Of a stretch of 64,000 nt of DNA, positions 18,670 through 20,936 are shown piece after piece; the first letter of the stretch is position 1; every line of letters starts with the position of its first letter. Position numbers and translations under genes: made by a program. Under the pieces are notes generated by a model. It was not told where the DNA came from. It did not search any database and worked only from the letters and a program-made list of their open reading frames with translations. Source of the stretch: Escherichia coli. Its GTDB lineage: Bacteria; Pseudomonadota; Gammaproteobacteria; Enterobacterales; Enterobacteriaceae. The stretch is from NCBI RefSeq assembly GCF_046105845.1, contig NZ_CP151004.1. One strand, written 5' to 3'.

Positions 18670-20088
18670 ATGCCTATTCAGCAACTTCCACTTATGAAAG
18701 GTGTCGGCAAAGACTTTCGAAACGCCGACTATATCGACTATCTGCCAGTGAATATGCTGGCTACACCCAAAGAAATCCTGAACAGCAGCGGATATCTTCG
18801 CTCATTCCCGGGCATTGCCAAACGTTCTGATGTGAACGGTGTATCGCGCGGCGTCGAGTACAACATGGCGCAGAGTGCTGTTTATCGCGTGTGTGGTGGC
18901 AAGCTGTATAAGGGCGAAAGTGAAGTCGGTGATGTTGCCGGAAGTGGTCGCGTATCAATGGCGCATGGTCGGACATCACAGGCGGTAGGCGTTAATGGTC
19001 AACTGGTCGAGTATCGTTATGATGGCACGGTTAAAACCGTCTCAAACTGGCCTACAGACAGCGGATTCACGCAGTATGAGTTAGGTTCAGTCCGCGACAT
19101 TACGCGCTTACGTGGGCGTTATGCGTGGTCAAAAGACGGAACTGATTCATGGTTTATCACTGACCTTGGAGACGAATCTCATCCTGACCGCTACAGCGCA
19201 CAATATCGCGCAGAATCTCAGCCTGATGGCATCATCGGCATAGGGACATGGCGAGACTTCATCGTCTGCTTTGGTTCATCGACGATTGAATATTTCTCCC
19301 TGACTGGCGCAACCACCGTTGGTGCCGCTTTGTATGTCGCACAGCCATCACTGATGGTGCAAAAAGGAATCGCCGGGACTTACTGCAAAACGCCGTTTGC
19401 TGATTCTTATGCATTTATCAGCAATCCGGCAACAGGTGCGCCGTCTGTGTATATCATCGGCTCCGGTCAGGTTTCACCAATCGCCAGCGCGAGCATTGAG
19501 AAAATTCTCCGCTCCTACACTGCTGATGAACTGGCTGATGGTGTGATGGAGTCTCTGCGATTTGATGCGCATGAGCTGCTGATTATCCATCTTCCGCGCC
19601 ATGTTCTCGTGTACGACGCATCTTCAAGCGCCAATGGTCCGCAATGGTGTGTACTGAAAACAGGCCTGTATGACGATGTGTACCGCGCTATCGACTTCAT
19701 TTACGAAGGCAATCAGATAACGTGCGGCGATAAGCTGGAGTCCGTGACCGGGAAATTGCAATTCGATATCAGCAGCCAGTACGAAAAGCAACAGGAACAC
19801 CTGCTGTTTACTCCGTTGTTCAAAGCGGATAACGCCAGAGTTTTCGACCTTGAAGTTGAATCTTCAACTGGCGTTGCGCAGTATGCTGACCGCCTGTTCC
19901 TCTCTGCAACTACTGACGGCATCAATTACGGGCGTGAGCAGATGATTGAGCAAAATGAACCGTTCGTTTACGACAAACGCGTTTTGTGGAAGCGTGTCGG
20001 GCGAATCAGGAAAAATGTTGGCTTCAAATTGCGCGTTATCACGAAGTCACCTGTCACTCTGTCTGGCTGCCAGATAAGGATTGAGTAA
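18670..20088 (+). CDS. Tail hub protein (P22 gp10-like)
   Basis: 472 aa; synteny. Confidence 0.75.
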
Positions 20089-20936
20089 TGGCGGATTCGA
20101 ATCTCAATGTGCCGGTAATCATCCAAGCTACGCGGCTCGATACATCAATCCTTCCACGCAATATCTTCTCGCAGTCATATCTGCTGTACGTTATTGCACA
20201 GGGTACTGATGTTGGTAACGTGGCTAACAAGGCCAACGAGGCCGGACAGGGCGCTTATGATGCACAAGTCAGGAACGATGAGCAGGATGTGATTCTCGCT
20301 GACCATGAGCAGCGAATTTCTGCTGCGGAAGCAACGCTTGTTAATCATGAGGAGCGAATCAGCCAGGCAGAATCAACTCTTCAGGAACATGAAACGCGAA
20401 TCGCTCAGAATGAAAGCGATATTGCGTCGCTTGATACCAGAGTTCAGTCGCTGGAATCGCAGGTTTCAGAACATGAAACGCGCATCGATGCTCTGGAGTA
20501 TGCCACTACTCGCAAGAAGTCAGAGGTTGTTTACTCTGGCGTATCAGTAACCATCCCGACAGCGCCGACCAACCTTGTTAGCCTGCTGAAAACGCTCACG
20601 CCGTCATCCGGCTCGTTGACACCATTCTTCGACACCGTTAACAACAAGATGGTTGTGTTCAACGAGAACAAAACCCTGTTCTTCAAGCTGTCGATTGTCG
20701 GGACGTGGCCCAGCGGAACCGCCAACAGGTCAATGCAGCTAACCTTTTCCGGCTCTGTTCCTGACACTCTGGTAAGCAGTCGTAACTCGGCGACAGCAAC
20801 CGATAACATCTTGTTAGCTACGTTCTTCAGCGTGGATAAAGACGGATTTCTTGCCACAAATGGCAGTACGTTAACCATCCAGTCAAATGGTGCGGCGTTT
20901 ACTGCCACAACCATCAAGATAATCGCGGAGCAGTGA
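20088..20936 (+). CDS. Tail needle (P22 gp26-like) with C-terminal knob domain
   Basis: 282 aa; trimeric coiled-coil heptads ([22 protein letters not shown]...) then a ~120-aa beta-rich C-terminal domain. Confidence 0.75.

Follow-up and report, generated by a model that had tools for sequence, protein, structure and literature searches.

The tail needles of P22-like phages are a textbook case of modular exchange, and crystal and cryo-EM structures as well as genetics exist for the relatives of the needle described here. The closest described needle is the product of gene 9 (gp9) of the Shigella phage Sf6, a protein of 282 amino acids; the crystal structure of its knob is PDB entry 3RWN (Bhardwaj et al. 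2011, as cited in PMC9728967). In the Sf6 tail, a quasi-six-helix bundle made by the N-termini of the needle sits at the channel of the hexameric gp10 hub (PMC9728967), the shaft comprises 11 heptads (PMC3741392), and the needle is lost before ejection (PMC9400499). The contacts of the knob with L-glutamate are Glu146, Lys200, Ser248, Asp250, Leu255, and Lys277 (Sf6 numbering), and a Ser231-Arg232-Asn233 triad holds a phosphate at the distal apex (PMC3741392). Mutants of the glutamate site have no phenotype; other alterations of the needle tip slow the release of K+, a kinetic effect on DNA delivery (PMC3741392).

The needles of the E. coli prophage HS1 (4K6B; PMC3741392) and of phage Gally also end in such a knob, carried on a protein of 317 amino acids with 16 heptads rather than the 11 of the 282-amino-acid type (PMC3741392). 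In contrast, the gp26 needles of P22 and HK620 are 233 amino acids long and end in an unrelated P22-type tip without the jelly-roll knob. HK620 is the type of P22-tip subtype A in Leavitt et al. 2013 (PMC3741392). Knobs also occur in large virulent phages (Straboviridae, Ackermannviridae, and others) as knob-only homologues of the family PF16532, which lack the P22-type plug domain and lie in other genomic contexts (e.g., ORF169 of LIMEstone1, which is annotated as a confirmed structural protein).

The gene at positions 20088..20936 (+ strand) of the window, a 64,000-nucleotide stretch of E. coli DNA (contig NZ_CP151004.1), almost certainly encodes the Sf6-type tail needle of a P22-like (Lederbergvirus) E. 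coli prophage. The protein has the same length as Sf6 gp9 and is identical to it at 273 of 282 residues (96.8%) in a global alignment without gaps. The two needles have the same three modules, the same ligand-site residues, and the same position between gp10 and gp14; they differ by nine substitutions and in their hosts, which are Shigella for Sf6 and E. coli for the window. The Sf6-type needle of the window is already known, down to its exact protein sequence, which has the NCBI accession WP_409023861.1 (“tail needle knob protein [Escherichia coli]”).

The needle gene and its three domains

The needle gene, a homologue of Sf6 gene 9 and P22 gene 26, begins with ATG, runs for 282 codons, and ends with a TGA stop. 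The gene overlaps each neighbour by a single base: its start codon overlaps the TAA that ends gp10/Hc3 upstream (TAATG), and its stop overlaps the ATG at which gp14 begins downstream (TGATG). A Shine-Dalgarno-like AAGGA lies 7 nt 5' of the start. Phage late operons are typically packed this tightly. Between the needle gene and Sf6 gene 9 there are 25 synonymous and 9 non-synonymous codon differences, and this synonymous excess fits purifying selection. On the opposite strand, an open reading frame of 241 codons (20531..21256, - strand) overlaps gene 14 as well as the part of the needle gene that codes for the knob. It matches no Pfam family at E<=0.1 and is taken as a mechanical open reading frame.

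The Pfam family PF16532 (Phage_tail_NK, “Sf6-type phage tail needle knob”) matches residues 108-282 of the protein with E=3.5e-115 and a score of 382 bits, against a cut-off of 27. All remaining Pfam families listed for the needle score under their curated cut-offs; the inspected matches are to coiled-coil or unrelated families and are attributed to the heptad repeats of the shaft. Among the PHROGs, phrog_1030 (“tail needle knob”) spans residues 1-282 (E=1e-133), and phrog_1219 (“tail needle protein”) covers residues 1-146. The 90%-identity cluster that holds the protein has 3620 members, and the needle of Klebsiella phage phiKp_30 is 96.6% identical to that of the window. The cluster also lists two unrelated DUF2824 (gp14-like) proteins of 153-159 amino acids, which are probably a clustering artefact arising from the overlapping neighbour gene.

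The N-terminal virion-binding or plug domain (residues 1-60; 20088..20267, + strand) is homologous to that of P22 gp26. Of its 60 residues, 59 are identical to Sf6, 59 to HK620 (98%), and 50 to P22 (83%); identity to the N-terminal domain of the HS1 and Gally needles is 98%. A chain from the in situ cryo-EM structure of P22 gp10-gp26 (8EAP) matches residues 3-64 with E=1.3e-27. Structures of P22 gp26 (2POH, 3C9I, 4LIN, and 4ZXQ) match the needle from residue 1 to residue 137 or 149, with E~5e-44 for the matches over 1-137/144. The same N-terminal part (1-137/149) also matches 5BU5, a 233-residue needle chain labelled “DNA stabilization protein”, which we take to be the HK620 needle. Likeness to the P22 and HK620 needles extends to the coiled-coil shaft, the gene position, and a presumed plug-and-release role. 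Going by the role described for this domain in the literature (PMC9728967, PMC3741392), residues 1 to about 60 would insert in the gp10 tail-hub channel.

The coiled-coil shaft (residues ~61-139; 20268..20504, + strand) falls within a continuous helix at residues 42-140 of the AlphaFold2 model (pLDDT 89-97). Residues L, I, V, or M occupy 14 of the 28 a/d positions in one heptad register and 11 of 27 in a second one, shifted by three residues, which has the same a/d pattern; in the four unrelated registers of the shaft they occupy just 1-4 of 27 positions. The shaft is as long as that of Sf6. Homology to the Sf6, HS1, and P22 needles suggests that the shaft trimerises, the AlphaFold model itself being a monomer.

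The C-terminal knob (residues 140-282, ~143 amino acids; 20505..20933, + strand) is a TNF-like jelly roll. A comparison with PDB sequences pairs residues 130-282 with the knobs of Sf6 gene 9 (3RWN, E=6.4e-89) and of HS1 (4K6B, E=1.9e-88). The AlphaFold2 model was built from a 13-sequence alignment drawn from annotated phage records, whose members range from 97% down to 23% identity with the needle of the window. It has a mean pLDDT of 87 and a beta domain at residues 144-281, where pLDDT is mostly 83-97 and strands are modelled at 144-156, 195-206, 214-221, 226-232, 239-249, 260-267, and 271-281. In Foldseek comparisons of the model with the PDB, 4K6B and 3RWN rank at the top (E~1e-25, target-normalised TM 0.90-0.91), followed by P22 gp26 structures, which match the helical half. 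The distant matches (PRD1 P5, BclA, C1q, EDA-A1, BAFF, and TNF-alpha) are jelly rolls of the TNF/C1q kind. The knob model may lean on the presence of 3RWN in the AlphaFold training set; the identity of 97% already settles the fold.

The original prediction, made before any such comparison, was of a P22-like needle with a beta-rich C-terminal tip of Sf6 type instead of a P22 tip, and the identity to Sf6 gp9 and the TM scores to 3RWN and 4K6B bear this out; the Pfam, PHROG, and PDB matches put the domain layout far outside what chance would give. It proposed structure prediction and comparison with the Sf6 knob as the check, and the modelled C-terminus is neither disordered nor a continued coiled coil. 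The extra domain had been put at ~120 amino acids, which is too short by comparison with the ~143 found here. A 282-residue protein with an N-terminal coiled coil had also been described; the coiled coil is present, and its place is central, after the hub-binding segment.

Over residues 140-282, the needle is homologous to the same region of Sf6 gp9, which is how Leavitt et al. 2013 recognised this type of tip, and 139 of 143 residues are identical. This difference of 2.8% falls inside the published maximum divergence of 4.9% among the knobs of P22-like phages (Leavitt et al. 2013, PMC3741392). The knobs of HS1 and Gally are 97% identical to that of the window. All nine ligand-site residues are kept at the same positions (E146, K200, S248, D250, L255, and K277, and the triad S231-R232-N233), and these kept contacts, read together with the work on Sf6 and HS1, suggest that the window knob binds L-glutamate. 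Homologues with knob identity as low as 32% all retain E146, K200, and R232, and nearly all retain S248 and D250. The distant knob homologues in the alignment come from Straboviridae, Ackermannviridae, and one Autographiviridae phage, and the knob-only homologues as a group are 32-52% identical to the window knob.

The nine residue differences from the window to Sf6 are I21V, S92R, E100D, A113S, E128D, S176T, T178A, A237T, and A270S. Four of these are in the knob, all of them off the predicted strands and the ligand sites. The comparison took in fourteen other homologues of 282 amino acids: Sf6 gp9, the SB0258h1 prophage needle of E. coli, and 12 proteins that share the 90%-identity cluster of the window needle. 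Among them, I21, S176, T178, and A270 are shared polymorphisms. The shaft residue E128 and residue A237, which lies in the loop beside the Ser-Arg-Asn apex, were not seen in this small sample of 14.

Prophage setting and mosaic boundaries

The needle gene lies between gp10 and gp14 in a P22-like late operon. The upstream gene (18670..20088, + strand; PHROG 578, E=1.3e-228) encodes gp10, the tail hub or head closure Hc3, whose channel the needle would plug. The downstream gene (20936..21391, + strand; PHROG 651, E=7.3e-78) encodes a gp14 homologue (DUF2824), and the three genes after it encode the ejection proteins gp7, gp20, and gp16 (PHROGs 598, 917, and 770). The complete order is gp4 (the Ad3 adaptor), gp10, needle, gp14, gp7, gp20, gp16, an Ant-like anti-repressor, and the tailspike, which is the order of Sf6 and HK620. 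Open reading frames for the terminase large subunit (12254..13666), portal, scaffold, and coat have the expected positions and sizes and were identified from the gene order shared with the annotated loci of Sf6 and SB0258h1. Genes for a CI-like repressor, replication protein O, and a DnaB-like protein lie 5' of the late genes.

The tailspike gene is separated by an Acyl_transf_3 gene (30204..31382, - strand) from a P4-type integrase gene (31699..32892, - strand), and directly beyond these come tRNA-Arg(CCU) (33018..33092, - strand) and then E. coli yfdC, mlaA, and fadL. The element is a Lederbergvirus prophage at argW in E. coli, apparently intact, whose left end is beyond the window. The Sf6 prophage is likewise at argW beside a P4-type integrase and an acyltransferase gene. 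The acyltransferase, integrase, and tRNA layout (30204-33092) resembles the Sf6/Kapi1 insertion at argW with its oac-like O-antigen-modifying conversion gene. Among 5425 E. coli genomes that match the host flank at 33000-38400 (argW, yfdC, mlaA, fadL), just 1 reaches at least 99% identity and 4111 lie at 90-95%. Such values are low for core chromosome and reflect either a divergent segment here or an unusual host lineage.

The late operon is a mosaic of HK620-like and Sf6-like segments. Of the stretch 8000-31000, 57% is matched by HK620 and 45% by Sf6, in both cases at 96% identity. Scored in 90-nt windows, the DNA is 88-98% identical to HK620 across gp10 and the opening ~67 codons of the needle, as far as about 20289. 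Identity falls to 33-43% over 20290-20919 and is at least 96% again just inside gene 14. Identity to Sf6 is 92-99% all across the needle gene. Phage Gally, with its HS1-like needle of 317 amino acids, matches the window in plug and knob, and its shaft DNA is 63-78% identical. As judged from these alignments, the needle is composed of three exchangeable modules (plug, shaft, and tip), each of which is present in the window in its Sf6 version. By the same alignments, the shaft and knob (about 20290..20933, + strand) behave, relative to HK620, as one swapped cassette that replaces the P22-type module of HK620 in an HK620/Sf6-like late operon.

The window prophage differs from Sf6 in its HK620-like gene 7 and in a tailspike body that is unrelated. 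A further junction, from Sf6-like to HK620-like, lies at ~21550-21640, inside gene 7 (21394..22086); the 5' side is 96-99% identical to Sf6, and the 3' side is 89-100% identical to HK620 and 69-88% to Sf6. The tailspike (27805-30144, + strand) has a P22-type head-binding domain at residues 4-114 (PF09008). Megablast matches to the best-covering phages, HK620, Sf6, and N7 included, all end at ~28150. The receptor-binding body of ~660 amino acids (28165-30141) has four matches among 50,697 phage genomes, at 47-53% identity, in Enterobacter and Escherichia phages, and looks like a rare O-antigen specificity module.

Needle function and alternative readings

Published work on Sf6, HS1, and P22 suggests how the window needle would function. 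The protein would form a homotrimer whose N-terminal ~60 residues enter and plug the gp10 tail-hub channel, so that packaged DNA stays in the head. A trimeric coiled-coil shaft of ~80 residues would reach past the six tailspikes and carry the knob. The last ~143 residues would form the distal jelly roll, with L-glutamate at each subunit interface and phosphate at the apex. During infection the needle tip would be the first part of the tail at the outer membrane, and expulsion of the needle would open the channel to the ejection proteins gp7, gp20, and gp16 and to the DNA. The identity of the tip domain would tune the speed of DNA delivery and not host specificity.

No result contradicts the reading of the gene as an Sf6-type needle, which has to be set against several alternatives. 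One is that the protein is a needle of P22/HK620 type, with a helical or triple-beta-helix tip homologous to P22 gp26 ~141-233, and that the extra domain is an artefact of annotation or frame. The N-terminal 137-149 residues do match the P22 and HK620 needle structures, but the HMMER alignments to these needles end at residue 137-149, and a forced global alignment of residues 141-282 with P22 and HK620 gives 19-21% identity. The DNA likeness to HK620 is lost over the same region, and the C-terminus is 97% identical to the Sf6 knob in the same, uninterrupted frame; the probability of a P22/HK620-type tip is close to nil. The tip had been called “Sf6/HK620-type” in the original prediction, and only the first half of that label survives, HK620 gp26 being a protein of 233 amino acids with a P22-type tip and 19% identity over 141-282. 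It is also very unlikely that the gene belongs to a small defective P22-like remnant common in E. coli rather than being a working virion gene. Leavitt et al. 2013 (PMC3741392) noted such remnants, made up of several genes with an Sf6-type needle homologue among them, in over 100 E. coli genomes. The needle gene has matches in 1108 of 5426 complete E. coli genomes, where PGAP applies the same name, tail needle knob protein, yet coverage is at least 80% in 475. In the window, however, the whole late region from the terminase large subunit to the tailspike is present as full-length open reading frames, the scanned ones with family matches over their whole length, along with repressor, replication, and integrase genes and the adjoining tRNA-Arg, and the needle gene has the pattern expected of purifying selection. 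The remnant reading was rejected because the late operon is whole within the window.

A different question is whether the knob of this Sf6-type needle is a receptor-binding domain that determines host range, for instance by contacting OmpA or OmpC. Its fold is TNF-like, as in the receptor-binding P5 of PRD1 (Foldseek), and the literature likens the knob to the adenovirus fibre knob (PMC3741392, PMC9728967). OmpA and OmpC are secondary receptors that Sf6 needs, and the first part of the tail to arrive at the membrane is the needle tip (PMC9728967, PMC9400499); as of 2013, moreover, every knob-bearing P22-like phage infected Escherichia or Shigella (PMC3741392). A host-range role is nonetheless unlikely. 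P22 chimeras given either the Sf6 or the HS1 knob show normal plating and normal infection of Salmonella (PMC3741392). The mutations that expand the host range of Sf6 are all in the tailspike, and from those mutants the OmpC-binding region was placed in the distal tail tip (PMC9400499). Klebsiella and Salmonella phage records now include knobs that are near-identical or related. The suggestion in the original prediction that the tip influences host range finds no support in the knob-swap and tailspike results. Its companion, an influence on DNA delivery, is upheld for tip changes, with the effect limited to kinetics (PMC3741392).

In 2013, no Sf6-type tip was found in 48 Salmonella P22-like phages (Leavitt et al. 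2013, PMC3741392). Two Salmonella Lederbergvirus records (S9-5, MW790496.1) have full-length needles of the knob type, which are 61% identical to the window needle overall (tblastn) and 78% identical in the knob; the S9-5 gene (locus L006 1501-2367) sits between gp10 and gp14. Because these two records have knob needles, the host restriction of the Sf6-type tip noted in 2013 is no longer strict.

For the needle of the window in particular, E128 and A237 (D128 and T237 in Sf6), together with the S176/T178 loop variant, might tune a putative contact of the knob apex with the outer membrane in this E. coli host, possibly in co-adaptation with the rare tailspike body. The chance of this is slim; if true, it would mean a strain-level role of the knob in the triggering of ejection that laboratory chimeras have missed. 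The main uses of this needle are as a clean example of a shaft-plus-tip cassette swap among P22-like phages and as a correction to the notion that HK620 shares the Sf6 tip.
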